Positions 12,072 to 31,571 of a stretch of DNA of 64,000 nt are shown here, in pieces; position 1 is the first letter of the stretch, and each line of letters opens with the position of its first letter. Below the pieces are notes generated by a model, which did not search any database, was not told the DNA's origin, and worked only from the letters and a program-made list of their open reading frames with translations. The stretch lies in the sequence record PZ027503.1; one strand, 5' to 3'. The translations under genes were made by a program, and so were the position numbers. The stretch is from a phage.

Positions 12072-12100
12072 AAGGAGCCAAATGGCTCCTTTTCTTATTT
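12072..12100. terminator. bidirectional rho-independent terminator between convergent operons
   Basis: AGGAGCC-AAAT-GGCTCCT hairpin with T-tracts on both strands. Confidence 0.55.
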
Positions 12101-14767
12101 ATAACCCGAAGGAATATTGTTATAATCAGAAAGTTTTGTGCAATACCTGAATAGGTAACTATTAGCTACTCCGCCTAATGTATTTGTTAATGTTGTTCCT
12201 GTTCCTGTAAGATTTGTGCATCCACTAAAGAAAGAAGATAATGCTCCACGTTTACCACAAACAGTTAACCCTGGGTTGTCATTAAAGATTTTATTAAAAT
12301 CTGTAAGTGCTAAACAACCTTGGAATGTAGCTGTTAAAGAGGTCACTTTCGTTGGAATATTATCAAACATTCCTGCTGGAACTTCTGCAAGAGAGGTGCA
12401 ATCTTTAAAGGTGTAAGAATATCTTGTAACTTTTGATAGATTTTTAAATAAATCTGAAGGAATAGATGTTAAAGATGTACAACCTTCAAACGTGCTTGAC
12501 ATTGTTGTCATTGAAGGAAATAAAGCATCACTGAATAATCCTTCAGGGATAGCTGTCAAACTTGTACAGCCAGAGAAGATACCACTTATAGATGTTCCGG
12601 TGTAAGATGTGTTACTAAAACAATCAGAAGTTATTCGTCTTAAGTTAGCACAACCTTTTAAGAATTGTGAGGCTGGGCTTGTAGAATAACCAATTCTGTT
12701 GCCGCCCCATAATTCTAAAAGATCTGGATTTGCTTCCATAGACACATCAACACTATTCACTACTGAAGCACTTGCAAATTCAATAGCCAGTCTATATTCT
12801 CCTGCTGGATAACTATCCACTGTAGAGAAAGCTTTATTTCTAAATATTACTTTATTTGAAGGTATTACAACGTCATCCACCTTAACTACAAAGTTAGCTG
12901 GTGTGACAGTACCCGATAAAATTGGGAACGTAATTGCCCCATCTGCCGAGTGGTTGAAATATCCGTTTAGAACCGTTAAACTACTACTCGGAGATGGAGC
13001 TAACTCCTTTCCCGCAACAGCGTTCACCGTTAAATAAGAACTATCAGAAGCGGTAACAACACCTTGATATGTAGCTGTGCAACCAATTCTACAACCACCA
13101 TCACCAACACCAGTTATTACACCAGTTGTAGGATCTACTGTAGCAACATTAGGATCTGTAGTTGTATACTCAACAACCATACCAGGTAAGCTTGCTGCTC
13201 CTGTTGGCGTTATTTCTGCTACCATTGTTTGTGTTGTTCCTACATCCATCGCAGATAAGCTAGGGGTGTAAACACTCAATGTTGAAGCATATCCTCCAGA
13301 GGTATCTGATAAAGTTGTTCCTTCAGCGTTTAAGGCTGTCATACCTGCATCAAAACCACCTTCTGCATGGAAAGTCATTAAACCAGTAGATGATATTGTC
13401 ATGTTTGCAGGGGCAGAAGAAGTGTATTTAATATTGAAAAGTTTACCTCCTTCTGGGCTAACAGAATGTGTCAACTGTTTAGTTCCACCTACAATACAAA
13501 TTCCTAAAGAATCTGTAGTTAAGCCAGTTGCCAGAACATCCCCCGTAATCACGGAGCTTGCTATTGGTGTGAATTTATTATAGTTTAGACCACTATTGAA
13601 CAGATACGAGGCTTTCCCATCTTTCCAAATACCGGAATAATACATATCCCCGTTATAAACGAAAAAGGTTCCTTGATAACCTAATTGGTTAGTAATATCC
13701 ATATTCAACGTATGAACGCTTGTGAGCTTGTTTATATCCCAGGAACCCACTCCTTCAGGTTTAACTGGTTTTCCCACTTGGAGTGGATCTCCGCTCGCAG
13801 AATCATATCCCAAACCTAAGTTTGCAGTGTAGTTCTTACCAATAGCCCACAAGGAATTATTGATCCCAACGAAAAAAGAGTGGCGGCTTGGTGGAAATTT
13901 CCATGTTGAGAAACCTGCTGCAAAGGTGTCCAGTTTAGTGTAGGTTGTTTCTGTATTAGATCTAACATATAAGTAGTTTACTGTACCCGCGCCACCGGAG
14001 GTATCTCCTACAACTATTGTCTGGGAAACTGTATTGATGTAATCTTTGACATACACTGTTTCAGTAGTGGATATCGTGGCATTGACAAAAGCGGTTGTTG
14101 TGTTATTATTACCTGCTAAACCTTTACTAGCTCCACAAACACGCAAGGTTCCCGCATTGTTGACATAAGAGCATTGGTTATAACCTGCATCAAAAGCAAC
14201 TGCTGAACTTGTTATCTGACGGGGAGTAGAAACTTCGTTAGTAGTGCTTGCACCTAAACTGCCTACTGTGTTTTGACCCGATCCATAAAGAACACCGCTA
14301 TTCATTAACCAAAGAGTATTGTTATACCCTCCTTTAACCTCTTTAAGATTGGCTAAAGAGATAGTCCCTGTTATTACAGATGGAAAGCTGGTCCAAGTAG
14401 TTACACATGCATCCGTACCACCTGCTGCTATAGATCCTACCAACCCTGCTGTCAATCCTGAATATTGCCATCCCCCGCTGTTAGTTTTAATAACAAAACA
14501 ACGATCTGCGGTAAACACATCCGCTACTACAGTAGAAGCTAAGTGGAAATTATTGAATCGTGCACTACGAGTTCCATCTGCAATCTCACCAAAAAGGTTT
14601 GCGCCTTGAGTAAACAATCTACCATCATTAAGCAAAATTGCTAAACTGCTGTTAGAATTACCAGCATTATCTGGGTAATCTAAAGTGATTACTTTTTTAA
14701 CAATACCCGCTGGCAGAGGAACGACACCAGTGCTGGTCATAATAGTAAATATTGGAATTGGAAACAT
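12095..14767 (-). CDS. tail fiber / receptor-binding protein with C-terminal BspA-type leucine-rich repeats
   Basis: 890 aa; repeated FxGCTSLTxIPxxLF units (FSGCTSLTAIPEGLF, FEGCTSLTSIPSDLF, FKDCTSLAEVPAGMF, FSGCTNLTG) near the C-terminus. Confidence 0.7.
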   Translation of the reverse strand: MFPIPIFTIMTSTGVVPLPAGIVKKVITLDYPDNAGNSNSSLAILLNDGRLFTQGANLFGEIADGTRSARFNNFHLASTVVADVFTADRCFVIKTNSGGWQYSGLTAGLVGSIAAGGTDACVTTWTSFPSVITGTISLANLKEVKGGYNNTLWLMNSGVLYGSGQNTVGSLGASTTNEVSTPRQITSSAVAFDAGYNQCSYVNNAGTLRVCGASKGLAGNNNTTTAFVNATISTTETVYVKDYINTVSQTIVVGDTSGGAGTVNYLYVRSNTETTYTKLDTFAAGFSTWKFPPSRHSFFVGINNSLWAIGKNYTANLGLGYDSASGDPLQVGKPVKPEGVGSWDINKLTSVHTLNMDITNQLGYQGTFFVYNGDMYYSGIWKDGKASYLFNSGLNYNKFTPIASSVITGDVLATGLTTDSLGICIVGGTKQLTHSVSPEGGKLFNIKYTSSAPANMTISSTGLMTFHAEGGFDAGMTALNAEGTTLSDTSGGYASTLSVYTPSLSAMDVGTTQTMVAEITPTGAASLPGMVVEYTTTDPNVATVDPTTGVITGVGDGGCRIGCTATYQGVVTASDSSYLTVNAVAGKELAPSPSSSLTVLNGYFNHSADGAITFPILSGTVTPANFVVKVDDVVIPSNKVIFRNKAFSTVDSYPAGEYRLAIEFASASVVNSVDVSMEANPDLLELWGGNRIGYSTSPASQFLKGCANLRRITSDCFSNTSYTGTSISGIFSGCTSLTAIPEGLFSDALFPSMTTMSSTFEGCTSLTSIPSDLFKNLSKVTRYSYTFKDCTSLAEVPAGMFDNIPTKVTSLTATFQGCLALTDFNKIFNDNPGLTVCGKRGALSSFFSGCTNLTGTGTTLTNTLGGVANSYLFRYCTKLSDYNNIPSGYK

Positions 14768-14777
14768 TTAAACCCTC

Positions 14778-14805
14778 CATAAAAAGAAAGCCCCTTTCGG
14801 GGCTT
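14778..14805 (-). terminator. rho-independent terminator or attenuator after collagen-like fiber gene
   Basis: AAGCCCC-TTTC-GGGGCTT hairpin followed on the minus strand by CTTTCTTTTTAT. Confidence 0.45.
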
Positions 14806-14808
14806 CTG

Positions 14809-16833
14809 TTATCGTGTTACAACAACCATGTCCACGACATTACCCACACCAGGATACGTTAATTGCAAAATTGTTACTGCGTTAGCAGTAGTTGCTATTT
14901 CTGTATCATTCAGTGCTCCATAAGACGCATCTAGTGTAACCGTGTGTCCCGTTGTATCTTGAATCAAATAAATCATTGCTGAAAACGCTTTAGGCTTTGT
15001 AGAGCCAGTGACACCAGGCCATGCTCCAACTGTTAAAGCATCTGTTACTGTAACAACATACATATTGGAAGTTCCAGAAGGAGTCCAAGATGCTCCAGAG
15101 TTGGCAGTAGTTGTTTCAAGTTCCATGAAACCTGCTGTAACTTTAGTTGGTGTTATAGCTTCCGTAGGATCTGATCCTGATATTTCAATCCAGTTACCAT
15201 CAGAACGACCATACGTCAAGCCATCTTGAGGGGCTTCTGGTATACTAGGAAGAGTTCCTATAAGTGTCCACGTAGAAGAATCTGTTTTCTTGAACACTGC
15301 TCCAGTGGTAGTATTGAAGGCGTAATCATTGATAACACCGTCTCCTGCGACTGGATTAGTTGTTGCTACAAACCACTGTGCGCCGTCCTTACCGTTGGTC
15401 CCATCAGTACCGTTGGTTCCGTTTGTTCCAGGATCACCCTTATCTCCTTTATCTCCTTTTTCACCTTTGTCGCCTTTAATACTTCCCATGTCAACAAAAG
15501 ATGCGGAATTGGTGTCTTGATCGTAGGTATAGATGTAAAGATTACTAGTGTCTTCAGTTAAGTAGGCATCACCATAGTTATTATAAACAGGGAGAGCTTC
15601 ACTGTTCGGAACATGACCTTTAGCTGTAATTGATGTTCCTCCAAGACTGCCAACATTCATCCATTCCGTAGCATCTTGAATCCAAACATACAAATCATTA
15701 TTAATTTTATATGCATCACCTACTTCTCCAGTAGGAGGAAGTTCAGCTTCACTGTTCAGAACCCCGATAATCTCTAAGCCTGATCCTGTTGCACCCACTG
15801 GTCCTTGTGGACCTAGTTCACCTTGTGGACCTCGCTCTCCTTGATCACCCTTGTCTCCTTTTGGACCTTTAAGTGAGGCAATAAAATCTACTTCTGTCCC
15901 TTCATTACCAGCATCCAGCCAACTTTGATATGCAGATTTCCCTTCATCTCCATCTGTTCCATCAAGACCGTCTTTACCTGCCTCACCTTGTGGACCTTGA
16001 GGACCAACAATATTACCCATGTTGACCCAAGCTGTCCCATTAGAGACATAAAGATTACCATTGATAGAATAAGCTTGACTTACGTTTTCAGAGTTTGGTT
16101 GTGGTAAGTTACTTGTAGAAGGCAAATCCCCACGATAATCAAAACCGTTGGCGTTAACACCAGGTGCTCCCTGTGGCCCTGTAGGACCAACATCGCCTTT
16201 ATCACCTTTTATAGAGGTAAGAAAATCATAAACAGATCCTGTATTACCATCTGCCAACCATACCTCGTAAGCTGATTTACCTTCTGGCCCAAGAGAAGAA
16301 ATAAGTTTCCAAACAGAACCATCCCAAGCGTAGATTACATCACCTACGATATAACCATCCCCTGCAACGTTACCTGTGGATGGTAGTTCACTAGTGCTTG
16401 CTAATGATCCTTTAATATTAAGTTGAGCACCAGTATCCCCTTTCAAAGAAGCAAGCCATTGTGCTTCTGTTCCAACAAAACCATTATCAAGTGCGATCTG
16501 ATAAGCCGATTTACCAGCTTCAGGTATTGTTTCCGACAGATCATCAATCTGTTGCTGCATTGCCGTAAACTTGGCATTGATAATTGCTATATCATCAGCG
16601 GTCCCAACACTTTGCCATGCAAGGGAAGAAATACCACCTGTGGTGGCTGGCGTAGAGTTTGCTGGAACTACTTTAGGAAAAGTTCCTTTCCATTGGTAAT
16701 AATTCCCTTCTGCTGCTAACAGCAAAACTTCACGGGAATTACGTAATGTAAAACCTGCCTCAAAGCTGCGACGTTTTCGATAAGTAGCTTCTACCAGATC
16801 GGCTATCGCACTATTAGGTCTTGTTAAATTCAT
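14809..16833 (-). CDS. tail fiber protein with collagen-like Gly-X-Y repeats
   Basis: 674 aa; GDKGEKGDKGDKGDPGTNGTNGTDGTNGKDG, GPQGPQGEAGKDGLDGTDGDEG, GPKGDKGDQGERGPQGELGPQGPVG. Confidence 0.75.
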   Translation of the reverse strand: MNLTRPNSAIADLVEATYRKRRSFEAGFTLRNSREVLLLAAEGNYYQWKGTFPKVVPANSTPATTGGISSLAWQSVGTADDIAIINAKFTAMQQQIDDLSETIPEAGKSAYQIALDNGFVGTEAQWLASLKGDTGAQLNIKGSLASTSELPSTGNVAGDGYIVGDVIYAWDGSVWKLISSLGPEGKSAYEVWLADGNTGSVYDFLTSIKGDKGDVGPTGPQGAPGVNANGFDYRGDLPSTSNLPQPNSENVSQAYSINGNLYVSNGTAWVNMGNIVGPQGPQGEAGKDGLDGTDGDEGKSAYQSWLDAGNEGTEVDFIASLKGPKGDKGDQGERGPQGELGPQGPVGATGSGLEIIGVLNSEAELPPTGEVGDAYKINNDLYVWIQDATEWMNVGSLGGTSITAKGHVPNSEALPVYNNYGDAYLTEDTSNLYIYTYDQDTNSASFVDMGSIKGDKGEKGDKGDKGDPGTNGTNGTDGTNGKDGAQWFVATTNPVAGDGVINDYAFNTTTGAVFKKTDSSTWTLIGTLPSIPEAPQDGLTYGRSDGNWIEISGSDPTEAITPTKVTAGFMELETTTANSGASWTPSGTSNMYVVTVTDALTVGAWPGVTGSTKPKAFSAMIYLIQDTTGHTVTLDASYGALNDTEIATTANAVTILQLTYPGVGNVVDMVVVTR

Positions 16834-16868
16834 TTATCTCTCCTATCATTAGACCATTCTATTGGAAG

Positions 16869-16890
16869 AAGAGGGGGGAATCCCCCTCTA
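16869..16890 (-). terminator. hairpin, putative terminator after tailspike gene
   Basis: GAGGGGG-GAAT-CCCCCTC hairpin; moderately U-rich 3' flank on the minus strand. Confidence 0.35.
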
Positions 16891-16895
16891 TTCCA

Positions 16896-19800
16896 TTAGG
16901 TTGTTGGCACATCTACTACTGGCGTTGGGCGAATAACCGCAGTATTACCTACAGAAACATTACTGGAATCATTAGGTATGGTTTTAATTCTAACTCCAGC
17001 ACTTGTAGGCGTTACAATTGGATCTGCAATGTCTATTTTAACTGGGTTAGTCCACGTATCATTATCTTGATAAGGTGCACGAGTAATAACTGTGTCCAAA
17101 TCTGCTCCACCTACGCCAGCACCAGGAATACGGATACGTGTCCCTGCTGACAGAGGGTAATGATACAACCAAGAAGCATTTGTTGCTGTCCCGTTAGGAG
17201 TCAAGTTCTGTGTCAGGAAGGTATCTCCTGCCTGTGTAGCTCGAATACCGAAAGCTGGGATATCTGGAATATATGCCCCACTTGTTGTTACAAGGAAGAA
17301 CGTATTATCCGCCTTGACTATCATATCCCCTTTGTCAAACTCTTTCCCTGTTGGGAAATGCATTCCATCAATGTTTCGACTAGGATTAGGCTCTAAGTAA
17401 TAAACTTTGCCCGTTGTCCCTACAATAGCTCCAATACCACCTGCGATATTGGTATACATATTAGCTTCAACATTACAGTTGACACGATGAATATCCGAGT
17501 AACGGCAACGGCTCCACTGTGGACGACCAGTAACCATCGTCTTGCCATCTGGGTAACAGTTTACGTTAACCATTTCAAGAACAGATTTTTCTCTACGGAA
17601 GAATCCATCATAAAATGTCCCTGGACCAGATTCAGGTTGACCAACACAATCGAAGATATTACAGGTGATGTTAGACATTGAAAGCCAAGAAGCTATACCG
17701 AACAACTGCAAGGCAGCGCAACGAATATTTTCAAAGCTAACTCTGTTTTCATAACCTGGCCCAGCGGAAACTCCCGCAAAAACACGCCCAGTTTTGGTGT
17801 GAATGTTACGAACAGAATAGTTAAAGCATGGGTTTGAAGGTCTGCCCTGTGCCGGAACTACCGGATTACCCTCTTCATCCAGAACTGCGTTAGTTCCCCA
17901 CTCCAAGTAAATCATACGGATATTACTTGCAAGTGTGCTACCGTCTGTTTTAGGCTCTCCATAAACACCATCAATCGTAAAGTCTTTACTTCCATACATT
18001 ACAACTGCGCCAGTTGCCAAACCTGTCCCAACAGATACGGTTTGATCTGGATCGCCATGAATGTTTTCGATAGAGATATTACGACCAACTTCTACGTGGA
18101 CAATCTGACGACAACGTTTTGCAAAAACGTTACGAATTGTAATGTTCTTACAATATTGATCATCAGGGATTCCGTAACCATATGGTCCTTTACCAGCTAC
18201 ACCGATACCGATACCCCAGTTGGACAGAGGAATAGGAGCGTTAGTCCCATCGATATTAGACAGGTAAATATTCTCAATCACACAACCATCGTCATAATGT
18301 TTATTGATGACGTTCAGTTCTATTGCATCACCTTGCATGTCCATGAAGGTAAGGTTACGGAAGACACCGCGTGTTACTGGTTCCCCTGTTCCTTGTTGAA
18401 GAATGCCATATAACCCGTTTTTAAAAGTACAATTATCAATTTCAAAAGTACCTGATATTGGGTTGCCTTGGAATACCAAGCTACCAACTTGACCTGCGCG
18501 AGGAGCACCGTCCCACAAACAATCGAACATGCGCACAGCACCACCCCAATACATAACACGAGAGTTACGGAAAGTTGTGCCTTCTACTGTAGCATTCTGC
18601 ACACGATAGTCGCGTTGACCACGGAACACACCACCACGCAAAGTGATATCTTGAATATCAAAAGAGCTTGTCGTGAAAGTCATGTCGCAACCGTAAGCAT
18701 CGAGAATCTTGCTTTTCGAAGCTTTTGCTGCTAACAGTGCCGCCTGGAAAGCTGCTTCTGGTGTGGTATAGGTAGTTGTATTGTTAGCAAATTCTGACAA
18801 GTAGACAACATCGAATAGATCGTTGTATGTTCCACCACGAGGGGTTAACAGTCCTTCTGTATTAGTCAGAACCCATGCATTTGGACCTAATCCTCCGCTT
18901 GTCTCCAATGTATCAGAGGCCAAAATACTTTTTGGTAAACTTCCAGCCCAACGATAACGACCAGCACCACGTCCAATCGTCTGATTTTTAGCTGTCAGAG
19001 TTACGTTATTACCAAAGCTTGTAGGCAAATGAACAAACTGTCCACGCTCAACAGCCAGTGCAGAAAGGTCTACAGATCCTCCAGAATAAGTCATTACTCC
19101 AGAAACAGATAAAGATGTTAAAGTTCCTGTGATGTTAGGAGGTAATGTGTAGGAAGACTGTGCTACCGGATCATACAGAGCTTTAATCCCTGTTAACGAT
19201 TGACCTGCTGTTGCGTAAGCCACCTCATCATCTAACAAACCATACTTACGAGCAATAGCTTGCAGAGGGACTTTATCCATGCTTTCTGTTAGTTCTTCCG
19301 TTTTTGTTTCTAAACTAACAAGACGGTTCTCTAGATTAGGATCTGTATCTGCTGAAGCTACGATTTTACCAATATAAGCAAAAAGCTTGTTTGGCAGTCC
19401 TGTTGCAGGATCGTGTCCCAAAGGTTCAGATAAGATGATCTTACTGTCTTCTATACGGAAAGCTTCCCCCAGAACCTGAATAACACCATTGATCGTAACA
19501 ATAGCACTATCAAAGATGTAAGGAGGACTAATTACTGTTTCATAACCAGTTGCACCAGAGTATACCCACGGGGTGACTTCTGTTGCTAATTGTTCTGTTT
19601 TCAGTCCCCACAATACCCAGTTGTTATCTCCTACTGGAGTCCCTTGCATAGGGATTGGGTTAACCAATGTAGCGTTAGGAGCATAGTAATAACCGCTCAA
19701 TACTCCATTCTGGAAATAACGAAGTTGGTTAAAAACTGTTTCGTTTGTGCCTTGCGCCCAATCTAATGGGCTTTTAAAGAAAAAGTTGTCAACAAGGGCT

Positions 19801-19949
19801 TTTCTCAGGGTTGGTATCAACCCTGATTCTGTTTCAATACTCTCTGTAGCACTTCCATTAATAACATCATGGAGTTGGTTAGATGAGAAAATAACCAGAT
19901 CTACGCCCTGTTCGAGAGACGTTGCTGGATATGTTGGGAATGTTGCCAT
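16896..19949 (-). CDS. large tailspike / tail fiber protein (1017 aa), probable beta-helix depolymerase-type
   Basis: Size, position in fiber cluster, Gly/Asn/Thr-rich repetitive beta-strand-like composition. Confidence 0.6.
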   Translation of the reverse strand: MATFPTYPATSLEQGVDLVIFSSNQLHDVINGSATESIETESGLIPTLRKALVDNFFFKSPLDWAQGTNETVFNQLRYFQNGVLSGYYYAPNATLVNPIPMQGTPVGDNNWVLWGLKTEQLATEVTPWVYSGATGYETVISPPYIFDSAIVTINGVIQVLGEAFRIEDSKIILSEPLGHDPATGLPNKLFAYIGKIVASADTDPNLENRLVSLETKTEELTESMDKVPLQAIARKYGLLDDEVAYATAGQSLTGIKALYDPVAQSSYTLPPNITGTLTSLSVSGVMTYSGGSVDLSALAVERGQFVHLPTSFGNNVTLTAKNQTIGRGAGRYRWAGSLPKSILASDTLETSGGLGPNAWVLTNTEGLLTPRGGTYNDLFDVVYLSEFANNTTTYTTPEAAFQAALLAAKASKSKILDAYGCDMTFTTSSFDIQDITLRGGVFRGQRDYRVQNATVEGTTFRNSRVMYWGGAVRMFDCLWDGAPRAGQVGSLVFQGNPISGTFEIDNCTFKNGLYGILQQGTGEPVTRGVFRNLTFMDMQGDAIELNVINKHYDDGCVIENIYLSNIDGTNAPIPLSNWGIGIGVAGKGPYGYGIPDDQYCKNITIRNVFAKRCRQIVHVEVGRNISIENIHGDPDQTVSVGTGLATGAVVMYGSKDFTIDGVYGEPKTDGSTLASNIRMIYLEWGTNAVLDEEGNPVVPAQGRPSNPCFNYSVRNIHTKTGRVFAGVSAGPGYENRVSFENIRCAALQLFGIASWLSMSNITCNIFDCVGQPESGPGTFYDGFFRREKSVLEMVNVNCYPDGKTMVTGRPQWSRCRYSDIHRVNCNVEANMYTNIAGGIGAIVGTTGKVYYLEPNPSRNIDGMHFPTGKEFDKGDMIVKADNTFFLVTTSGAYIPDIPAFGIRATQAGDTFLTQNLTPNGTATNASWLYHYPLSAGTRIRIPGAGVGGADLDTVITRAPYQDNDTWTNPVKIDIADPIVTPTSAGVRIKTIPNDSSNVSVGNTAVIRPTPVVDVPTT

Positions 19950-19952
19950 TAA

Positions 19953-20288: not shown

Positions 20289-20297
20289 AGTGATCCC

Positions 20298-22544: not shown

Positions 22545-22546
22545 TT

Positions 22547-24034
22547 TTACACTCCATACTCGTAAGAAATGTTATCAAGGTCAAAAGAAGGGACAACATT
22601 ATAAGCAGGAACTATATTATTCTCTGTATATTTACTGTCATCCTCAGTATTAAGTTTAACATAAACACGAAGAGAAGTCAAGCGTCCAAAAGCAAGTGCT
22701 GCATAAATAACACCTTTGATTTGATCGTTCGTTACTGAAGAACCTAACTCAAAGTAAGCTTGCAGGTTTTGTAAAGCTTCTACGATGTTTTGTTTTTCTG
22801 TTCCACTTAAAGTCGTTCCGTTGACAGTTTGATAAACAAGTTTTACGGAATACATAGCAGAAGCACCAGGAGAGAAGCGAATAATTTCTTGTCCTCCATC
22901 TTCTGTTGTAACTGTTATGTTAGTTGTTCCGTGTGTCAAAGTGTTGATTGGTTTGGTTTTATAGATAACATTTGCAATTTCTTCTGCACTGCCACCATAA
23001 ACTATAGTCTGGAAAGTCATAGCTGGAGCGTGTTCTTGATCATGTAACGTAGGGTTATCATAAATCTTCACCTTAGTAACACCATCTGTAAGCAACAAAG
23101 CTTTCACAATAGCTGCTCGTGTCCCTGCGTTAGCTTCATCAACGTTGTCATTGAAACGAGAGCGGAATTCTGCGTCTGTCTCAACATCTCGACCAGGAGA
23201 AAATGAATAGAAGTTACCACTGTCAAGATAACCTGTAAAGGTGGAAGATATCCCTGTAATAGACTCCACACCAACAGGATTGTATCCTTTCTCTGCTGCA
23301 ACTACCGGAATCTCACTCCATTTGGTTCCAACCGGAACACTAGCATAAAATTTAATAGGAGTTACCAGCCCCACTGGAGTATCACTGGTTAAAGAAGTAA
23401 AACCAATTGATAAGTTACCTGAATCAGAAAATACAAGACTACGATCAGCTTCTGTTAAATTTGCCTTGATAAAAGTTTCAAGATCGGTTATAAATGTAGA
23501 AGAACCAGGTGCAAGTGTTTTACTGTTTAGTCCTCCATCGACCGCACTTTGTGCATAAAAAGTAATATTTGGAACACCTGTAGCAGTTGCATTAGCACGA
23601 GAGATTTGATAAGCTGCAATCTTAGCATTCAACATAGTTGGTGTGCTAACATAGTAGTTCATATCACTATCAGAGTTGAAGTAAATATCCGTGCCTAGCT
23701 CATAAGTCCAAGCTGCTTTGTTATTACTCTTAACATATGCATAACCTGTACTTGCTGCTGCACCTGCTCGATAGAAACCGCGTTTAGAAAAGATTTCATC
23801 AAGATAAATACCTTCTGCACCATCCAGTGTTTGAGTATTATAAACACCTTGCATACCTTCCCACAATGTGTAATCTGTGTATGCAATTATTCTAAACAGT
23901 TGTCCGATCACAGTATCTTCCGAAGTGGCTGCATCTGCACCAAATGTGTTTTTTACTGCTGTCATGTAGTTGTTTAAAACATCGTCAAAAGTTGGGATTA
24001 CAAATCCCGCATCTGTCAAACCATATTCGTCCAT
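22547..24034 (-). CDS. putative baseplate wedge protein (495 aa)
   Basis: ORF track; size and synteny. Confidence 0.45.
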   Translation of the reverse strand: MDEYGLTDAGFVIPTFDDVLNNYMTAVKNTFGADAATSEDTVIGQLFRIIAYTDYTLWEGMQGVYNTQTLDGAEGIYLDEIFSKRGFYRAGAAASTGYAYVKSNNKAAWTYELGTDIYFNSDSDMNYYVSTPTMLNAKIAAYQISRANATATGVPNITFYAQSAVDGGLNSKTLAPGSSTFITDLETFIKANLTEADRSLVFSDSGNLSIGFTSLTSDTPVGLVTPIKFYASVPVGTKWSEIPVVAAEKGYNPVGVESITGISSTFTGYLDSGNFYSFSPGRDVETDAEFRSRFNDNVDEANAGTRAAIVKALLLTDGVTKVKIYDNPTLHDQEHAPAMTFQTIVYGGSAEEIANVIYKTKPINTLTHGTTNITVTTEDGGQEIIRFSPGASAMYSVKLVYQTVNGTTLSGTEKQNIVEALQNLQAYFELGSSVTNDQIKGVIYAALAFGRLTSLRVYVKLNTEDDSKYTENNIVPAYNVVPSFDLDNISYEYGV

Positions 24035-24276
24035 TAGTCATCCTCTTTGGTAGATTGTGATCTGCCCCAGCGTAAATCAATAAGATTTTTCATGAGGCGA
24101 GAAGGAGTTATCATGAAAACAAAAGCCCAACCCATCCATTCAGGAATTTCTTTTTCTATTCCTAAAAAGATAAACATGCCTGTCATAACCGACATGCCTA
24201 CAGCGTTCCAGACTTTCGTAGAACTGACTTTATTATCAGGATATGTACAGAACATACCTATTAAAAATTTTCTCAT
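24034..24276 (-). CDS. small membrane protein (80 aa, two predicted TM helices)
   Basis: Hydrophobic segments MSVMTGMFIFLGI and WMGWAFVFMI. Confidence 0.4.
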   Translation of the reverse strand: MRKFLIGMFCTYPDNKVSSTKVWNAVGMSVMTGMFIFLGIEKEIPEWMGWAFVFMITPSRLMKNLIDLRWGRSQSTKEDD

Positions 24277-24581
24277 AGTGCGTTCTCATTACTTTTTAAA
24301 TCACGATATACAGCTAATTCCCCAAGGTCTACAGAACCCGCTGAATGCACAAGTACAGCAGCACTAAGACTAATGGCAGTAGTACCTGGGGCAATATCAG
24401 CAGGTAATGAGTAAGCCCTCTGTGACACTTTGTCATAGATGACTTTGTAACCTGTAAGCAGAGCACCTACTGAGAAGTAAACAACCTCAGATTGTTTAAC
24501 CCCAAAGTGACGGGCTACTGCTTGCTTGTTGGTTAGGATTCCTGTTGAACCCTTACCACCTTGGGAGAATAATTCGTTCAT
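24273..24581 (-). CDS. hypothetical protein (102 aa)
   Basis: ORF track; start overlaps upstream stop. Confidence 0.4.
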   Translation of the reverse strand: MNELFSQGGKGSTGILTNKQAVARHFGVKQSEVVYFSVGALLTGYKVIYDKVSQRAYSLPADIAPGTTAISLSAAVLVHSAGSVDLGELAVYRDLKSNENAL

Positions 24582-24733
24582 AAGTACCTCTTTGTTTTTC
24601 TAAGTAAGCCCCTCCAAAGAGGGGCATGCAGTGGTAATGACAGCATTTTGAGTTAGTATGCTAGTAACTAAAGACAAGATTAATCCTGCTATGATGCGTT
24701 TCATCCTGTCCTTTGTTTATTGCGTTCCAGCTT

Positions 24734-26524
24734 TTATGGTGTAGTTCTCATGGAATAAGTAAACGCCTCATTTTGCCCTGTCAATAAAGGCACGTCACCA
24801 GAGGCATTAATTATCAGATCTACTTGTGAGTTTGCTAGTTCATCTTCAGTTTTCCCAGTCATGACTTCATCTCGAATTGTGATGCGTATAGTGGATAGCG
24901 GATCACCTTGATAGAATGTGGCTCGAATCAACTGCTCACCCTTGTCATTCGTTAAACCTGCGGCAGCGCCGTAATACACGTAATCGTGTGTCCAGATACC
25001 TGCCTTTTTATAAACAGAAACCAGAACCCCAGAGTCCTGAAGTTTACTAGATAGTATGACACCCTTATTTGATATTTTTGAAATCCTGCAATCAAATTGA
25101 TAGCCGCCATCGGTGTTTAAGAAGTTCCCATTCACCGAAAAGTTTATATCACTCTTCAGTATTGAGCTTCCTCTAACAGTGCCTGAGTACTCCCATAAAA
25201 GCGGTAGCTCACGCAATTCAGATTCACCAGTCCATTTAGGGTTAGTGTTCTGATTGTTTGTTTTTAGGACTATCGCATTAACCTCTTTTGAGGCCGTGCC
25301 ACAAAGCCCTTCATAATACCCGGAAGATGCGTTAAAGGCACTTTTTGTAAACGGAATACTGTCTGTGTTTGTACATCTCGGAGCAGGACTTATTGTAATA
25401 CCATCTAGAGCGTATATTTGTTTAGCCCTAGAGAATGAATTAGAAAAAGACCCTGGGAGATACGAACCATTTATCATTGCAGTAGCATATGCGTCGATTG
25501 TTATAAAATTCTTTGTTGGTAATGCTGTAGAAGGTCTAGAATTATTAACAACAAGAGATCCATTATATGCCCAGATAAAATCTTCTATAGATGCCTCCGC
25601 TCCGCAACCATTTATAACAACGTACCCGCCATGCAGTTCAAAACCTTTAGCTGACGCGTTGTTTGTCGGCTGCTCCCCGAACGAGCACGCATTAACTTCA
25701 GAGTATGTTGATTTCATCTGAATACCGGCCCATAACGGGTCTACTGCCCACACTCTGTTTACTATATTTGATGTACCATAGGCTCTCAGTAGTACACCGC
25801 AACTGTAGCTCGTTAAGTCTTCAAACCGAGACATCCAAGAATGAATATCTATACCGATGAAGAATTTAGAAAACGTACATCTAGTAAAAACAGATTTTGG
25901 ACAATTACTGCCCCCCTCCTTTTTTTGTATCCATCGTGTTGGGTATACGTCTGCACTATCGCCAACCGCCCAAAATACCCTATTGTTGGCAGCTACTACT
26001 CCTGCTGTTCCACCCAGGCTATTTAAGTTCTCAAACGCAAGGTTATCAATTTCAACCTCACCTTCAGGCCACTTACCATCCCCTTCATATGAAATAAAAG
26101 CCTCTCCATTAGCCAAATCGCACAGAAACAGACTGATATTAGTGTCAATTGTTGATGCGCTATATCTGTTACCTGCGCCAAAAAGTTTAAATCCTTGTTT
26201 TGCAATGAGTGGCTTACACTTGTAGCGACCAGCAGGTACATATATTTTTTTACCGAATGGGTTTGCGGCATTTATAGCAGCTTGAATAGAACTTGTATCA
26301 TCCGTAATCCCATCACCTACTGCACCAAAGTCTTTAACGTTAATTACATCAGCAAATCTATCGGCTAATGTTCTGGGTGTATCACTCCCCGCAGCAACCA
26401 CCCCAATGTTAGTAAGAAAGTTGGAAACTGTGCTTTTAACGGTTTTATCAGGTTGGTCTAAAACTAGGTAATCAGAACCATTAACTTTTGAGGTTTCCGG
26501 TAAATTAGTAATTGTAGTTGACAT
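24734..26524 (-). CDS. tailspike protein with pectate-lyase-like right-handed beta-helix
   Basis: N-proximal VKDFGAVGDGITDDTSSIQAAINAA signature of Pectate_lyase_3-type tailspikes. Confidence 0.7.
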   Translation of the reverse strand: MSTTITNLPETSKVNGSDYLVLDQPDKTVKSTVSNFLTNIGVVAAGSDTPRTLADRFADVINVKDFGAVGDGITDDTSSIQAAINAANPFGKKIYVPAGRYKCKPLIAKQGFKLFGAGNRYSASTIDTNISLFLCDLANGEAFISYEGDGKWPEGEVEIDNLAFENLNSLGGTAGVVAANNRVFWAVGDSADVYPTRWIQKKEGGSNCPKSVFTRCTFSKFFIGIDIHSWMSRFEDLTSYSCGVLLRAYGTSNIVNRVWAVDPLWAGIQMKSTYSEVNACSFGEQPTNNASAKGFELHGGYVVINGCGAEASIEDFIWAYNGSLVVNNSRPSTALPTKNFITIDAYATAMINGSYLPGSFSNSFSRAKQIYALDGITISPAPRCTNTDSIPFTKSAFNASSGYYEGLCGTASKEVNAIVLKTNNQNTNPKWTGESELRELPLLWEYSGTVRGSSILKSDINFSVNGNFLNTDGGYQFDCRISKISNKGVILSSKLQDSGVLVSVYKKAGIWTHDYVYYGAAAGLTNDKGEQLIRATFYQGDPLSTIRITIRDEVMTGKTEDELANSQVDLIINASGDVPLLTGQNEAFTYSMRTTP

Positions 26525-26532
26525 TTTTACTC

Positions 26533-28686
26533 CTATATATAAAATTTTTGTGTTGTTACTAAATCTTCTCCAGATTTAGTGGCTAATGTAATTCCACTTA
26601 TAGTGGCAATCTCAACATTTACCTGTTTAAGAGTGATATCCTGTAAATAAACGTTCAAAGGCACGTTACCCATATAGAAAACTTGGGATTGAGAATTAAC
26701 TACTGTGATAGAATCATGCATTATTTGAGGATAGGCCCATATATATTGTGTAAGTCCGTCAAACTTATTGGCGTTCAACACTATGTTACCTATAATCATC
26801 TTCCAAAGATATGTGCGGTAGTTTGATTTAGGATCAAAGCCATACAAAGGTGCAAGAGTAGCATCTGGAACAAACCCTGCAAGATAATGTATCTTATCGT
26901 AACTAAAACCTAGTTGCTCATTAGGTATAGTAATTGCATCAAACGCTTTCATCATCTTACCTTCCAGAAGCCAGTCATAACACTCTGAACAGTAAAAATC
27001 AAAAGCTTCAGGAATGTAGTAATCAGACGGAAAGTTAACTTTCTCCATCAAACCGTTGCCGATAATCGATGGTAAGAACGGAAGCAATGTTACTTTAGCT
27101 CCTGGGTAAGTTGCTCTAGTATCTGTTGCAAACTTTGTAACTCTTAATCCTAGTTTACGAGACAAAAACGCATAGTATTCGTCAAACGGTGTTCCTGTTT
27201 TATAATTATCTATTGTTCCTGCATCTTGTGCAAATAAGCCAGTTTCTGTGTTGAATGCCAGTTTGGTAGTGTAATCGTATATGCAAGGCATTTTACTTGC
27301 TGTATTATACCACCACCAAGGCTCACCAATTTGAATGACAACTGGAATATTATTAGCTTGCGAAATAGATGCTATTTTATTAATAACATTTTGCAAATAT
27401 TCCATACCTTCGTCAATAGTTGGAGACAACACGTAACTAGGAGGCTTATACCCTGTTGCTGCAAGAGCATCGTTCCAATCATGCTGGACCCATTCAACAG
27501 GACAAACTGTGCTCATCAACTCAAAACTCAAAGAGTTCATTATTGTGTAGCCATTTTCATTAGCTATAGAATGGAAACTGTTAAGCCAAGCTTCTGTAGC
27601 CGGATTCAGGAAAACAGATCTATTTAAAGCCCAAGATGTTCCGTTCCATGAGAACTCATAATAGTGAGACATTCCGTTGTAATGGTTAATCATTCCACGA
27701 TAACCTAGTGCATATGTATTATAAATAACTCTCTCTGGAGTCAGGTTATACATATCATCATAAGATGTGCACATGCGAATATCATGTTCAGGCTGGACAA
27801 GGTTGCTGACTTTCATCATACTGTAACCAGAAGTAGGTTCAAGAAGAGTGAAAGTAAACCAAGCCTCTTGACTGTCAATAGGTACAACCTCTTCTATTTT
27901 TTCATACCTTGCTGTAATCAAAGAGAAGAAAATATTATCTACAGCACTCATATCCAAAGGAATATCATTATTAGGGCCAGAAAAGATATTACCAAAATCT
28001 AACTTGATTGTAGCTGTTTTACCATCTTCTGAAATATCCGAAGCGTAGAATCCTAAACTGACATAATGAACACTTTTATCCAGGAGAGTTACAGTCAAAG
28101 TCGGCACCAAAGGTTCTTCTTTAAAACCTGGCATGTTTTGACTAATTTCCATTTTAAACCAAAGTTTCTCTGAACTTAAATCTGTGTGAGGCAAATACCC
28201 AACACCTTTATGGTCATATTTGTCAACTGTGCTCCAGATAACCCCTGCCAAACCTGCTGTTGTTCTGTTTACAAATCTTGCAGTAAAAGAGTCTCCATGA
28301 GATACAATAGAACAACTTTCCGTTGCTTGAGAATCTATTGTCCAATACATAGGAGAGAACATTTTAACGTCTTTTGTAGTCCAAGTTATTGGAGTAGTAT
28401 TTTCTTGGATAGTAGTTATAATACAATTGATGGTTGTTTCAACCATCATGTTATTTTGACTAATCCCTGAAACTTGGAGGGAGAAGTTAAGATCTATTGA
28501 GTTCTTTGGTCGTTCAAATACTTCAACCACAATAGTAGCAGAATCAGCATCATCAGGGAACACAAGTGTTCCCGATTTTGCAATATAATCTCTACCAGCG
28601 ACTGCTGTTCCGTCAACAGTCGTGTAGTTAAATGAACTCGCATTTACTCTCTTGTCTCGCGTGACAGTAAATATAGCTTGTTTCAT
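26533..28686 (-). CDS. tail fiber / tailspike protein (717 aa)
   Basis: ORF track; large protein in fiber cluster. Confidence 0.5.
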   Translation of the reverse strand: MKQAIFTVTRDKRVNASSFNYTTVDGTAVAGRDYIAKSGTLVFPDDADSATIVVEVFERPKNSIDLNFSLQVSGISQNNMMVETTINCIITTIQENTTPITWTTKDVKMFSPMYWTIDSQATESCSIVSHGDSFTARFVNRTTAGLAGVIWSTVDKYDHKGVGYLPHTDLSSEKLWFKMEISQNMPGFKEEPLVPTLTVTLLDKSVHYVSLGFYASDISEDGKTATIKLDFGNIFSGPNNDIPLDMSAVDNIFFSLITARYEKIEEVVPIDSQEAWFTFTLLEPTSGYSMMKVSNLVQPEHDIRMCTSYDDMYNLTPERVIYNTYALGYRGMINHYNGMSHYYEFSWNGTSWALNRSVFLNPATEAWLNSFHSIANENGYTIMNSLSFELMSTVCPVEWVQHDWNDALAATGYKPPSYVLSPTIDEGMEYLQNVINKIASISQANNIPVVIQIGEPWWWYNTASKMPCIYDYTTKLAFNTETGLFAQDAGTIDNYKTGTPFDEYYAFLSRKLGLRVTKFATDTRATYPGAKVTLLPFLPSIIGNGLMEKVNFPSDYYIPEAFDFYCSECYDWLLEGKMMKAFDAITIPNEQLGFSYDKIHYLAGFVPDATLAPLYGFDPKSNYRTYLWKMIIGNIVLNANKFDGLTQYIWAYPQIMHDSITVVNSQSQVFYMGNVPLNVYLQDITLKQVNVEIATISGITLATKSGEDLVTTQKFYI

Positions 28687-28694
28687 TTTACCCC

Positions 28695-31571
28695 TTACTC
28701 GGTAACGTCCACACTAATGTTTGCCATTGTCAAAACAGTAAGTGCAGGAATATTGCTCGAATCCAAAACAGGTAATGCATTTTGGGGATTAAGTTTTTTG
28801 TATAAAGCATACAACCCAAAACCACGTAACAACTCTCCAGCGTGGAAGCCAAAGAAGACTCCGTTATCACTGTCTGGTCTAGGAGCAGCACTCCAACAAC
28901 CATTCATAACGTGATTAGGACCAAGAACAATATAATTTTCCTGAATAAGTTCAAAACAGCGATCTGCTACTATTTTAATGTTAGGAATTTCTGAATCATA
29001 TCCAGCCATCCCCATTATAGCACATCCCGCCATAAAGAGCGCAGACATGTGACTTGTAAAGTCATCTACAGGCGCAGCCACTTCTCCGTTGGGATAAAAT
29101 ATTGTTGGTGTTCTTCCTTCGTTGTTATCTTGGAACCACTTCAGGTAGTTGATCCAGTTTTTACAAACTGTTAAAAGTTTTTCAGGAACTTCGGCTCCTC
29201 GTCGCTTTAGTTCGTATACCGTATGACACGCACAGAAGAATGCTCTTGCTTCATAACCATCCCAAGCTTTATCGTTCCAATGATACATTGTGAACTCATT
29301 TTTGTTTCCATATTTATGAGCATCCCAACGATCCCAAACATAAGCTTGTGCCATTGGCCCAGGCATTACAGGGGCAAACTTATTATAAAACCACATTTGT
29401 GAATCATATAAAAAGTCTATACTGTTGTTCATACGAACCCAGTCAATATCTCTCCCTTTAAAACAATATAAGGATGGGTATTGATAACCTGGGTAAGGAA
29501 TACCACGCCAACCGTCATATAATGCTGTATTAGGATCACTAATATTGGAAAATGGGATGATTCCTGGAGTATAATTCAAACTGTCAAGTTTGTAGTCCAG
29601 TATTGTACAATCTCCAAGTTTTGCTGTATAAGGATTTTCAGATGAAACTGTAACCCTGAAATACATTGTGTAATCATCACCAGCGGCTGAAGAATACAAA
29701 GATGGGATATCGTTAACGCAATAAAAGTCGATTGCCCCTGTCAAGCCATTTGCAGGTTCAGAATCCAATGCAATGTTCATCTGATCAACAGCAGTCAGGT
29801 TTATTGACGAAGGTTTTGTCTCTGTGTCATTGTGATTAGGTTGCCAAGTACTTAATTTGAAATCAGCAGGACTTAAAGCTTTAGTAACCCATGCAGAATT
29901 TGTTTTTTCTAACATGGCCCACCATCTCCAACCTGCGGAATCCGTAATAGTGATGTTAAAATCATCTGCGTATGAACGATACGTAATAGATTTTAAATTG
30001 GTTGTTTTAGTTGGTGTTAACCAAAACCCAATAGTAAAACCACCATCTGAATCCATATTAGCAGAAACTATCTGATCACTATTTGTCCCAGCAATACCAG
30101 TTGCATATTTATATTGTATCACAGTATTGCTTCCCCAGTCAACAATGATTCTAGGTTCAGCAATAATATATACACCACCTCCAGGAGGTTCAGTGCGCAT
30201 AAAACTGGATAAAGGTATATCCATCTTAGTCATATTAGCTGCACCAAGAGGTAAGCCACAACGATATGTCACTGTGTCTGTTTCACTCTTAGTCTTGCTT
30301 AATTCTAGCTCTGGACGGAAAAGAACACCTTCCCCTGCATCATCTACACCTTGAAACTCAATACGCAGTTTTGAATTCTGATCTACTCTGAACCAAACTG
30401 CCTGTTGTTCTAGAGTTGTTTGTGCTGCAACATCTTGGCGAATTATTGTGTATCCTAACTCGTCACGAGAATATTTAGGTATTGCTGTAGATGGGTATGA
30501 GTAATCATACGAGATACCATCTGTAAAAGGAATTATTGCTGTCGTAGATCTACGAAAGAATTTATCAAACATATCGATGTTTGAATAGTCTTGACACAAC
30601 AATAAAGAAGATTGCCAGCAAAGCCAGTATTTTCTCTCTCCTGTGATCTGATACATCAAGTAGTTTGCATCACACCACCACGTTTCAGCATCGGAAGCAT
30701 TGTCTTGATAACCTAACTCTACCGGAACGTTTACAGGACGGTTATGCCACATCTCATTACGCTTAAGCAGATATCCACCGTGTTCTACAGGGTTGCATGT
30801 AGCGTAGTTGAATTTATAGTCACCGTTCACAGAAGCGTTTTTAAGTTGCACTGTTCCATATTCTGCAAAGCTATGACCAGTAGATAAAATATTACCATCC
30901 CAATCAACTTTACGTCCTAGACGATCTATAATCCATTCAACGTCCCACTGATCTCCATATTCTTTCCAGTTGGTTGAACCATCTGGGTTAGTTGCATACA
31001 CTGTTGCGTTAACAGAGTTCCAACCAAGATTACCATTGAAAGCAAACCAAGCTTTATCTAAGTATTCTCCCCAATGTGGCGCACCTTTAGGAATAACAGT
31101 CCTTCCGTTAATCCAAGTCATCATGCTACCTTTGAACCCACCGTGCGTAGGATACCCATCATCTGTGAGAGGGTAGTGTGCTAAACGTGGTTCTTTACCA
31201 TTGATGATCCAGTTGGGACGATACTTAGCTGGAGGATCAGGAATAGGTTGGCCCCCGAAGAAGTGATCTATATATGCTTGCCAATACTTCTCGGCAGATT
31301 CAAGATATTTTTTATCTCCTGTAGCCAAATATGCATAAGCAAAACCAGTGATAAGCACAGATTGACCTTCGGTAGTAGCGTCACCGTTTGGTTGCCCTTC
31401 CTGCGCTGTCCAGTTAATAAAGTGTCTGTTGTTCGCCAATACGTTTTGTGGGTTGATAATGTAGTGCTGAACCGTAGGATCTATGGTAAGACCAGTATTT
31501 CTTTCCAAAAACTGAACCAACCCTTCAATCAACTGAAACGTGTTGTCAATATTGTGCTTAACTCTTGACAT
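28695..31571 (-). CDS. large tail-associated protein (958 aa), possible carbohydrate-active receptor-binding protein
   Basis: ORF track; Trp/Tyr-rich globular composition; synteny. Confidence 0.5.
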   Translation of the reverse strand: MSRVKHNIDNTFQLIEGLVQFLERNTGLTIDPTVQHYIINPQNVLANNRHFINWTAQEGQPNGDATTEGQSVLITGFAYAYLATGDKKYLESAEKYWQAYIDHFFGGQPIPDPPAKYRPNWIINGKEPRLAHYPLTDDGYPTHGGFKGSMMTWINGRTVIPKGAPHWGEYLDKAWFAFNGNLGWNSVNATVYATNPDGSTNWKEYGDQWDVEWIIDRLGRKVDWDGNILSTGHSFAEYGTVQLKNASVNGDYKFNYATCNPVEHGGYLLKRNEMWHNRPVNVPVELGYQDNASDAETWWCDANYLMYQITGERKYWLCWQSSLLLCQDYSNIDMFDKFFRRSTTAIIPFTDGISYDYSYPSTAIPKYSRDELGYTIIRQDVAAQTTLEQQAVWFRVDQNSKLRIEFQGVDDAGEGVLFRPELELSKTKSETDTVTYRCGLPLGAANMTKMDIPLSSFMRTEPPGGGVYIIAEPRIIVDWGSNTVIQYKYATGIAGTNSDQIVSANMDSDGGFTIGFWLTPTKTTNLKSITYRSYADDFNITITDSAGWRWWAMLEKTNSAWVTKALSPADFKLSTWQPNHNDTETKPSSINLTAVDQMNIALDSEPANGLTGAIDFYCVNDIPSLYSSAAGDDYTMYFRVTVSSENPYTAKLGDCTILDYKLDSLNYTPGIIPFSNISDPNTALYDGWRGIPYPGYQYPSLYCFKGRDIDWVRMNNSIDFLYDSQMWFYNKFAPVMPGPMAQAYVWDRWDAHKYGNKNEFTMYHWNDKAWDGYEARAFFCACHTVYELKRRGAEVPEKLLTVCKNWINYLKWFQDNNEGRTPTIFYPNGEVAAPVDDFTSHMSALFMAGCAIMGMAGYDSEIPNIKIVADRCFELIQENYIVLGPNHVMNGCWSAAPRPDSDNGVFFGFHAGELLRGFGLYALYKKLNPQNALPVLDSSNIPALTVLTMANISVDVTE

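Follow-up and report, generated by a model that had tools for sequence, protein, structure and literature searches.

How many receptor-binding proteins are encoded by the large genes lying between positions 12095 and 31571 of phage sequence record PZ027503.1, and is such a repertoire peculiar to this phage? The stretch of DNA analysed, 64,000 nucleotides in length and referred to here as the window, had been read from its sequence alone as carrying an unusually large repertoire of at least five distinct large fibre and tailspike genes (the original prediction). The six minus-strand open reading frames (ORFs) on which this reading was based were recovered at exactly the same coordinates, with products of 890, 674, 1017, 596, 717 and 958 residues. 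These proteins, called P1 to P6 below, are encoded in one long minus-strand block that starts at a convergent junction near 12.05 kb. Identities to phage phi92 proteins, here and below, were obtained by tblastn.

12095-14767, minus strand: P1 ('TfpM1'), 890 residues; RCC1-type seven-bladed propeller, immunoglobulin (Ig)-like region and leucine-rich repeats (LRRs)
14809-16833, minus strand: P2, 674 residues; collagen-like fibre, ortholog of phi92 gp151 (60% identity)
16896-19949, minus strand: P3, 1017 residues; tailspike, ortholog of the phi92 colanidase gp150
24734-26524, minus strand: P4, 596 residues; pectate-lyase-fold tailspike in a variable slot, at the position of the phi92 endosialidase gp143
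26533-28686, minus strand: P5, 717 residues; ortholog of phi92 gp142 (77%), with Calx-beta, NCTSP_N and a TIM barrel
28695-31571, minus strand: P6 ('TfpL'), 958 residues; ortholog of phi92 gp141 (83%), predicted to contain an (alpha/alpha)6 barrel into which beta-sandwich domains are inserted

The 20-kb region from position 12000 to 32000 of the window was used as a megablast query. It matched 164 phage records; one match spanned at least 80% of the query in 66 of these, and 61 records showed 95-99% identity. The top match was Escherichia phage dw-ec (98.9% over 91%). The matched relatives are myoviruses of about 150 kb belonging to the genus Phapecoctavirus (subfamily Stephanstirmvirinae), including phAPEC8, ESCO5, tuntematon, ukendt and EF1-1, and the same locus is present at 97-99% nucleotide identity, across 87-92% of the query, in more than 60 Phapecoctavirus genomes. 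When the ORF map was compared with annotations and with the results of tblastn, the order of genes proved to be that of ESCO5 gp226-gp238 and phi92 gp140-gp152. In phi92 terms, gp140, gp141 and gp142 are followed by the slot spike, a membrane protein, two wedge genes, a Mu-type fibre and its chaperone, a lipoprotein, the colanidase-type spike and the collagen-like fibre. P1, P2, P3, P5 and P6 are 97-99.6% identical to proteins of ESCO5 and EF1-1 (tblastn), and the flanking baseplate genes are each 72-87% identical to their phi92 counterparts. The genes, their domains, their orthology and the division into conserved and exchanged parts can be read directly from these comparisons. An N4-like podovirus, which Pfam matches to 'non-contractile tail sheath' and 'Gp66' had suggested, was ruled out by the megablast match to Phapecoctavirus myoviruses of about 150 kb. 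Taking the identification of the locus together with the assignments proposed below as a single explanation, we consider it likely that the region is the baseplate-periphery or adsorption module of a phAPEC8/ESCO5-like Phapecoctavirus with a contractile tail, a genome of about 150 kb and the phi92 gp140-gp152 layout.

This locus is already known, and five of its six large proteins are at least 97% identical to annotated GenBank proteins. The multivalent adsorption apparatus of phi92, gp140-gp152, was reportedly described by Schwarzer et al. in 2012, according to later papers and the phi92 GenBank notes. In the BASEL paper and the Eryne note (PMC8594841, PMC11984140), phi92 serves as the prototype for a 'multivalent adsorption apparatus' or 'nanosized Swiss army knife' with three co-expressed fibre types, and large orthologous loci are ascribed to all Vequintavirinae and their relatives, Phapecoctavirus being named explicitly. 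Several fibre proteins had been detected in rV5 virions by proteomics by 2013, and a 2025 paper on Stephanstirmvirinae names the gene set: TfpL (958 residues), TfpM1 (890 residues), TfpM2, TfpS1 (353 residues) and TfpS3 (157 residues), of which TfpM1 is missing from phi92-like phages. A large receptor-binding repertoire is a published hallmark of phages of the phi92/phAPEC8/rV5 type and not a peculiarity of the window phage, so the word 'unusually' has to be dropped from the original prediction. Phages of the phi92/phAPEC8 type are studied for their broad host range and for phage therapy.

The window phage follows the same design as phi92, in which several fibres and spikes are co-expressed on one baseplate. 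It differs from phi92 in the slot, where a pectate-lyase-fold spike takes the place of the endosialidase gp143, and in an extra 102-residue ORF encoding an orphan N-terminal domain. Compared with Phapecoctavirus genomes, the sole difference of the locus is the body of the slot tailspike P4, and, judged by its sequence, this body is also the sole part that is new to phage records. Two features of P4 are of importance here.

26417-26524, minus strand: lineage anchor of P4, residues 1-36; the exchanged body begins at residue ~40
26294-26332, minus strand: motif DFGAVGDGITDDT of P4, residues 65-77

P4 had been described as a pectate-lyase-type tailspike with a signature sequence, and both parts of this description were borne out: the motif is present, and the protein scores 63.4 bits against PF12708, for which the cutoff is 27. 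Its matches in the PDB are beta-helix enzymes and tailspike or tail proteins (2vbe, 4urr, 7sg7). In an alignment the first 36 residues were identical to the N-terminus of the phAPEC8 endosialidase. Matches to Stephanstirmvirinae are confined to residues 1-91 or 1-109, with phi92 gp143 matching residues 1-91 only. About 45 N-terminal residues are shared at 93% identity by many slot alleles, which include beta-helices with Tail_spike_N, an SGNH esterase and endosialidases. No close match to the body, from residue ~40 onwards, was found among 50,697 phage records, the largest cover by any of them being 57%, at 26% identity. Nor was a full-length match found among 5.8 billion protein clusters; the best was 93% identical over 94% of P4 and had a different N-terminus. 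Five proteins that begin with other N-termini share the body at 91-93% identity; one of them lies in an N4-like contig of 71.8 kb and another in an Ackermannviridae-like cluster of four tailspikes on a contig of 153 kb. By sequence, then, the body of P4 is a module exchanged with N4-like and Ackermannviridae-like phages onto a conserved anchor. Pas et al. 2023 described this pattern, in which the anchor is conserved and the receptor-binding domain is acquired by horizontal transfer, and the P4 body, absent from some 50,700 phage records, provides a clean example of such exchange across families. No characterised close homologue of P4 was found among the phage records or protein clusters. Cleavage or binding of a polysaccharide is predicted from the fold, and the body predicts a distinct O- or K-antigen specificity.

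Links to the branched tailspike complexes of other phages extend beyond P4. N-terminal docking domains of the CBA120 TSP1-4 and G7C gp63.1/gp66 complexes are shared by P2 (residues 12-77), P3 (residues 226-372) and the 102-residue ORF, and the P4 body is held in common with Ackermannviridae-like and N4-like tailspikes at about 92% identity. In the window phage, however, the docking domains are internal (P3) or stand alone (102 residues), and the adaptor is different, P4 having a lineage-specific N-terminus of 36 residues. On the N4-like contig (L006, 8001-12895) the P4 body is encoded by the first of two adjacent tailspike genes; in the Ackermannviridae-like cluster (L007, 1647-12875) it is encoded by the third of four, beside a DUF4815 protein.

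The two genes preceding P4 in the direction of transcription had also been counted among the fibres and spikes. Neither P5 nor P6 fits that description. P5 matched PF23845 (267.8 bits) and PF23844 (59.5 bits; cutoffs 27) as well as Calx-beta in Pfam, and in the PDB it matched N4 gp64 (9lc0_M, 4.5e-30) and N4 gp65 (9lc0_I, 6.1e-13). It is an N4 gp64/gp65-like TIM-barrel protein, in which the TIM barrel matches gp64 and NCTSP_N matches part of gp65. In N4, gp64 and gp65 form a receptor-binding sheath heterodimer of which gp65 is the receptor-binding protein. In contrast, only one of the ten domains of gp65 is matched by P5, which is a single chain of 717 residues carrying Calx-beta. Because a phi92-type myovirus has a contractile sheath of its own, P5 is not a tail sheath, and its role is expected to differ from that in N4 despite the common domains.

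P6 gave no match in Pfam, NCBIfam or PDB sequence searches. This globular protein is conserved: among hundreds of homologues encoded by phages and prophages from Enterobacter, Pseudomonas, Stenotrophomonas and marine bacteria, identity is 43-55%. The conservation is even along the whole length, with no variable tip; only the disordered last 30 residues are excepted. The AlphaFold model (predicted local distance difference test score, pLDDT, 85.8; predicted template modelling score, pTM, 0.78) is compact and appears to contain a six-hairpin (alpha/alpha)6 barrel like those of families GH8, GH76, GH88 and GH105, with interrupting beta-sandwich domains. Similar folds are found in other phage 'tail fiber' proteins. 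Across 39 diverse sequences the invariant residues were N47, N48, R49, H50, D64, H276, N277, R278, N291, D294, E296 and W298, together with R748, D750, Y754, W765, W770, Y773, R776 and E913. These polar and aromatic residues, D, E and H among them, lie in and near the barrel helices of a protein that has no sequence-family match.

P6-like sequence occurs in two fusion proteins. In one, of 1557 residues (P0266), the P6-like part is followed at its C-terminal side by NCTSP_N and a TIM barrel, which together resemble P5; in the other, of 1097 residues (P0245), it is fused N-terminally to a P2 gpI baseplate domain. These fusions and the even conservation of P6 support a chain from P6 to P5. P5 and P6 more probably form, instead of fibres, a scaffold arm that carries the exchangeable P4. 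Other P6-like proteins, such as one of 1620 residues (P0249), have long C-terminal extensions bearing a glycine-rich domain.

The electron cryo-microscopy (cryo-EM) study of phi92 published in 2026 gives this arm a possible counterpart. There, fiber I is an L-shaped arm on the wedge protein gp145 that ends in the endosialidase gp143, fiber III is assigned to the Mu-like gp147, and both attach to gp145 (PMC13450770). By analogy, P6, P5 and P4 would make up one appendage equivalent to fiber I. P6, probably the baseplate-proximal part, would sit on the wedge, and P5, probably the middle part, would extend it. Trimeric P4 would plug into the arm through its conserved 36-residue N-terminus, and its beta-helix body would cleave or bind capsule or O-antigen. 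The P4 slot may then be the main host-range switch, relatives carrying an endosialidase, an SGNH esterase or other beta-helices at this position. The fold of the gp141 family and the fusion proteins make these proteins candidates for densities left unassigned in the phi92 maps.

Whether such an arm would act on glycans is a separate matter. P5 and P6 could be purely architectural, with TIM-barrel and (alpha/alpha)6 folds that are catalytically dead and recognise no glycan. We give this a substantial chance, somewhat below even. The invariant polar and aromatic residues of P6 are typical of a conserved sugar-binding cleft and so count against it, but they could equally mark protein-protein interfaces. 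The fuller proposal, that P6 and P5 are active glycan-processing or glycan-binding modules which together form the unassigned proximal fiber I arm of phi92-like phages, and that this arm acts on a conserved enterobacterial glycan (for example the N4 glycan receptor, NGR, enterobacterial common antigen, ECA, or the lipopolysaccharide, LPS, core) while only the tip, P4, is exchanged, is in our estimation unlikely.

P3 is the second candidate depolymerase. It consists of an anchor (residues 1-215), an inserted module and a beta-helix body (residues 455-1007).

18588-19304, minus strand: inserted CBA120/G7C-type N-terminal tandem domains of P3, residues ~216-454

In PDB searches, residues 426-1000 matched the crystal structure of phi92 gp150 (6e0v, E = 1.1e-78), and residues 226-372 matched N-terminal domains of CBA120 TSP1, TSP3 and TSP4 and of G7C gp63.1. 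The anchor is 75% identical to that of gp150, and the body 33% identical. P3 falls in PHROG 6117, colanic acid degradation, and a WcaM-like region is present at residues 502-662. We take P3 to be a putative colanic-acid-type depolymerase spike, colanidase activity being attributed to it from annotation and the phi92 literature. The docking-domain module of about 240 residues is internal in P3 and missing from phi92 gp150, which suggests that the body arrived with docking domains of its own, this original anchor of the body being kept internally. P3 would be a second depolymerase spike and a candidate for fiber II, from which P2 may branch by means of TSP-type N-terminal domains.

P2 has a TSP1/Gp66-type N-terminal domain (residues 12-77), three GKSAY repeats and a C-terminal knob, and its central part contains the collagen-like sequence.

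15376-16206, minus strand: four Gly-X-Y runs of P2, residues 210-486

The claim of collagen-like Gly-X-Y sequence was substantiated: the runs, of 6, 8, 10 and 11 triplets (35 in total), alternate with small LP..GD.Y knobs, and the protein scores 46.4 bits against Pfam Collagen (PF01391; cutoff 27.2, E = 3.3e-12). Tail_spike_N was matched at 1.3e-19. In the PDB the N-terminal domain matches CBA120 TSP3 and TSP4, and residues 557-671 match a tail fibre (9cuy_g). The triple helix is a prediction from the repeat. Such segments had been called uncommon in phages of Gram-negative hosts, and here the outcome was the opposite. P2 matched 75 PHROG families; most of the 25 listed align to the central collagen/GKSAY repeat region, and about half of those 25 are annotated as tail or tail-fibre. 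Because the matches centre on the repeat region, collagen-like segments must be regarded as common in phage fibres.

P1 had been described as a BspA-type LRR fibre. Its propeller occupies residues ~20-400 and its Ig-like Big_2 region residues 401-590; a beta-rich linker separates these from the repeats.

12098-12670, minus strand: BspA/DUF285-type LRR region of P1, residues ~700-890
12098-12997, minus strand: exchangeable C-terminal cassette of P1, ~300 residues

The Ig-like region is the only part shared with phi92 gp152 (66% identity over residues 411-584, tblastn), a 202-residue Ig protein to which P1 adds the propeller and the LRR cassette. Residues ~700-890 contain six or seven repeats of F-x-G-C-T-S-L-T-x-I-P-x-x-L-F at intervals of 26-32 residues, and six F-x-x-C-x-x-L units with the same spacing lie within residues 731-890. 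A whole-protein Pfam scan of P1 gave no LRR match, which taken by itself would speak against the LRR claim; for the C-terminal 190 residues, the sequence itself and targeted tests pointed the other way. In one such test the C-terminus stayed below the Pfam gathering cutoff for DUF285 (16.8 bits against 25, E = 0.006), and the best family members reached E = 1e-4 for DUF285 and 9.7e-4 for LRR_5. Alignment of the segment to the DUF285 cassette of orthologs with hhalign gave E = 1.7e-5. An exhaustive phmmer search returned 18,515 relatives of the repeat segment at E<=1e-3, many of them giant proteins with up to 26 tandem matches. Of ten strong relatives (E<=1e-58) that were sampled, four exceeded a Pfam LRR-type cutoff: LRR_5 'BspA type' (P0422), DUF285 (P0363 and P0352) and LRR_8 (P0305). 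The Pfam match overlaps the region matched by P1 in P0422 and P0352. In the structure model there is one short strand per ~27-29 residues (pLDDT 80-94).

With 18,515 relatives, and sampled members reaching the cutoffs for LRR_5, DUF285 and LRR_8, the C-terminal repeats of P1 are, at the level of sequence, genuine BspA/DUF285-type LRRs and not a compositional artefact. The description as an LRR fibre nevertheless stands only for the last ~190 of 890 residues, the remainder being mostly RCC1-type propeller and Ig-like. P1 shares with BspA/DUF285-type surface proteins the repeat of 26-32 residues and the F-x-G-C-T-S-L-T-x-I-P motif; it differs from them in falling below every Pfam LRR cutoff itself and in bearing the LRR as a tip of ~190 residues on a phage propeller-Ig protein. 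Some of the strong relatives are surface proteins that also have fimbrillin-like (Mfa_like_1) or BACON domains, presumably from Bacteroidota. A still more speculative, and unlikely, reading is that P1, whose LRR relatives bear Bacteroidota-type surface-protein domains, serves to attach the phage to a target that is not the surface of E. coli.

The C-terminal ~300 residues of P1 form an exchangeable cassette among orthologs. Two of these (P0128 and P0129) are 99% identical in the propeller and 17-20% identical at the C-terminus, two others (P0141 and P0145) match DUF285 at E = 1e-42, and forms of 565-609 residues exist that have no cassette. At least three unrelated C-terminal cassettes, as well as the cassette-free short forms, were seen on the otherwise conserved propeller-Ig protein, and the window type (134 sequences in its cluster) is about as common as the P0129 type (112 sequences). 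The window-type cassette is 90-92% identical where the propeller is only 75-81% identical, and recombination is therefore indicated. Swapping of this cassette would mark a second host-range switch in Phapecoctavirus. P1 would be an accessory adhesin specific to Phapecoctavirus and 'Wecvirus', with a conserved propeller and Ig region and a swapped C-terminal cassette.

The appendage assignments made here were arrived at by analogy, drawing on the cryo-EM maps of phi92, on the order of the genes and on the fusion proteins. In addition to the fiber I arm, the P3 spike and P1, a 353-residue Mu-type fibre, equivalent to fiber III, would bind the LPS core and trigger contraction. With about five specificities presented at once, the phage could cross layers of capsule, of colanic acid and of O-antigen when it meets different hosts. 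Several observations weigh against this scheme. No virion proteomics of a Phapecoctavirus was found in the literature. The phi92 cryo-EM study leaves fiber II and the proximal part (arm) of fiber I without assignment and never mentions gp141 or gp142 (PMC13450770), and because it leaves these uncovered the chain from P6 through P5 to P4 is one that we infer. According to the same study gp151 and gp140 resemble the head-spike protein of phage Pa223, so that P2 may sit off the baseplate. The body of P3 is only 33% identical to that of phi92 gp150, the substrates of P3 and P4 are predicted, and the structure models are of monomers.

The resemblance to the Pa223 head spike also bears on a different placement, in which P1, P2 or both decorate the head, neck or tail tube and, as Ig-like decoration proteins do, provide adhesion that is weak and non-essential (for example to glycans of mucus or matrix) or an initial, reversible contact. 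In phi92, P1 corresponds to the 202-residue Ig-like protein, which is annotated as having a lambda gpV-like fold, and the Ig region of P1 matches 'major tail protein' PHROGs. P1 is dispensable, as it is missing from phi92-like phages and cassette-free forms of 565-609 residues exist, and the surface proteins with Mfa_like_1 and BACON domains among the strong relatives of its LRR would suit such a role. The genes for P1 and P2 lie within the tail-fibre block, however, P2 carries the TSP1/Gp66 N-terminal domain that serves as docking module of branched tailspike complexes, and swapping of the P1 cassette is the pattern of adaptation to host receptors. We regard a decorative role as quite improbable. 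That all six large proteins are separate, independently attached fibres or spikes, each with a different receptor, is very unlikely. Every one of the folds (propeller/Ig/LRR, collagen, two beta-helices, TIM barrel and (alpha/alpha)6 barrel) could admittedly bind or process glycans, and the receptor-binding protein of N4, gp65, is partly homologous to P5. Against this, P6 keeps 43-55% identity between very different phages and has no variable domain at its distal end such as receptor-binding proteins have; parts resembling P6 and P5 are found joined in a single polypeptide; P4 needs a partner because its anchor is just 36 residues; and phi92 has three fibre types per wedge, not six (PMC13450770).

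With P5 and P6 assigned to the arm, the receptor-binding set comprises a colanidase-type spike, a pectate-lyase-fold spike, a collagen-like fibre and the propeller-Ig-LRR protein. Beyond the genes listed originally, the locus holds the Mu-type short fibre with its chaperone and a 157-residue fibre protein. The count of at least five receptor-binding proteins therefore survives, with a changed membership: P1, P2, P3, P4, the 353-residue fibre and possibly the 157-residue protein. The locus encodes several distinct receptor-binding or glycan-degrading proteins, so that the phage is multivalent, and to this extent the original prediction is supported. What is added here to the published picture is incremental, namely the recombinant slot tailspike, the fold and fusion evidence for gp141 and gp142, the swapping of the P1 cassette and the 102-residue orphan N-domain ORF. 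The smaller genes concerned are the following.

20298-20843, minus strand: Tfa/gpU-type assembly chaperone of the short fibre, 181 residues (PHROG match)
20844-21905, minus strand: Mu gpS/phi92 gp147-type short fibre, phi92 'fiber III', 353 residues (PHROG match; 75% identical to gp147 over residues 1-267)
21915-24034, minus strand: baseplate wedge proteins of 209 residues (phi92 gp146 ortholog, 87%; PHROG 4056) and 495 residues (gp145 ortholog, 80%; PHROG 6)
24273-24581, minus strand: ORF of 102 residues, preceded by a ribosome-binding site of its own; corresponds to the first N-terminal domain, standing alone, of tailspikes of the CBA120/G7C type
31571-32044, minus strand: small fibre protein of 157 residues, phi92 gp140 ortholog (83%; PHROG 9017)

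The short fibre and chaperone genes (20298-21905) matched PHROG 4465 and 136. By analogy with fibers I and III of phi92, which attach to gp145, the fibres would dock on the wedge proteins of 209 and 495 residues. The ortholog of the 157-residue protein, gp140, was counted as a fibre candidate in the phi92 cryo-EM study (PMC13450770).

The 102-residue ORF matched PHROG 7992 (E = 4.7e-60) and is 47% identical to residues 230-302 of P3. It is intact in ukendt and EF1-1, is shortened to 49 residues in alia and is missing where the slot is occupied by an endosialidase (ESCO5, phi92). Its stop codon overlaps the start of the gene for an 80-residue membrane protein. Of the codon differences from EF1-1, 19 are synonymous and 10 non-synonymous. 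With these counts and the ORF intact in three phages (a small sample), we do not favour a decaying pseudogene; the ORF could be what is left of a second tailspike in the slot, or could encode a small adaptor or cap. A second small ORF, of 34 residues (MKRIIAGLILSLVTSILTQNAVITTACPSLEGLT; 24600-24704, minus strand), lies in the 152-bp gap after P4 with AAGGACAGG upstream. It has a hydrophobic, signal-peptide-like N-terminus, is without annotation in relatives and may be spurious.

Genes for a 111-residue lipoprotein (19953-20288, minus strand; 76% identical to phi92 gp149) and for the 80-residue membrane protein (24034-24276, minus strand; 81% identical to phi92 gp144) are located inside the fibre cluster. 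These two products could be involved in superinfection exclusion or in fibre assembly.

Several of the large genes had been said to be separated by terminator-like hairpins of their own. Hairpins were seen after P1 and P2 and, in weaker form, after P3, and the scan for terminator-like hairpins found none after P4, P5 or P6.

12092-12071, minus strand: terminator-like hairpin after P1, with a perfect 10-bp stem (12070-12093) that scores on both strands
14806-14787, minus strand: terminator-like hairpin between the P2 stop and the P1 start, directly after the P2 stop
16886-16874, minus strand: weak terminator-like hairpin between the P3 stop and the P2 start, with a 5-bp G/C stem

A scan of the sequence for promoter consensus matches did not exceed the shuffled expectation (49 found, 54 expected). 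The hairpin after P1 is situated at the convergent junction, where the plus-strand gene for single-stranded DNA-binding protein (SSB) ends at 12038 and P1 ends at 12095. Elsewhere in the window, a cluster of ten tRNA genes (two Met, Ile, Pro, Gln, Gly, Thr, Asn, Ser and Arg) is present on the minus strand at 51352-53275.

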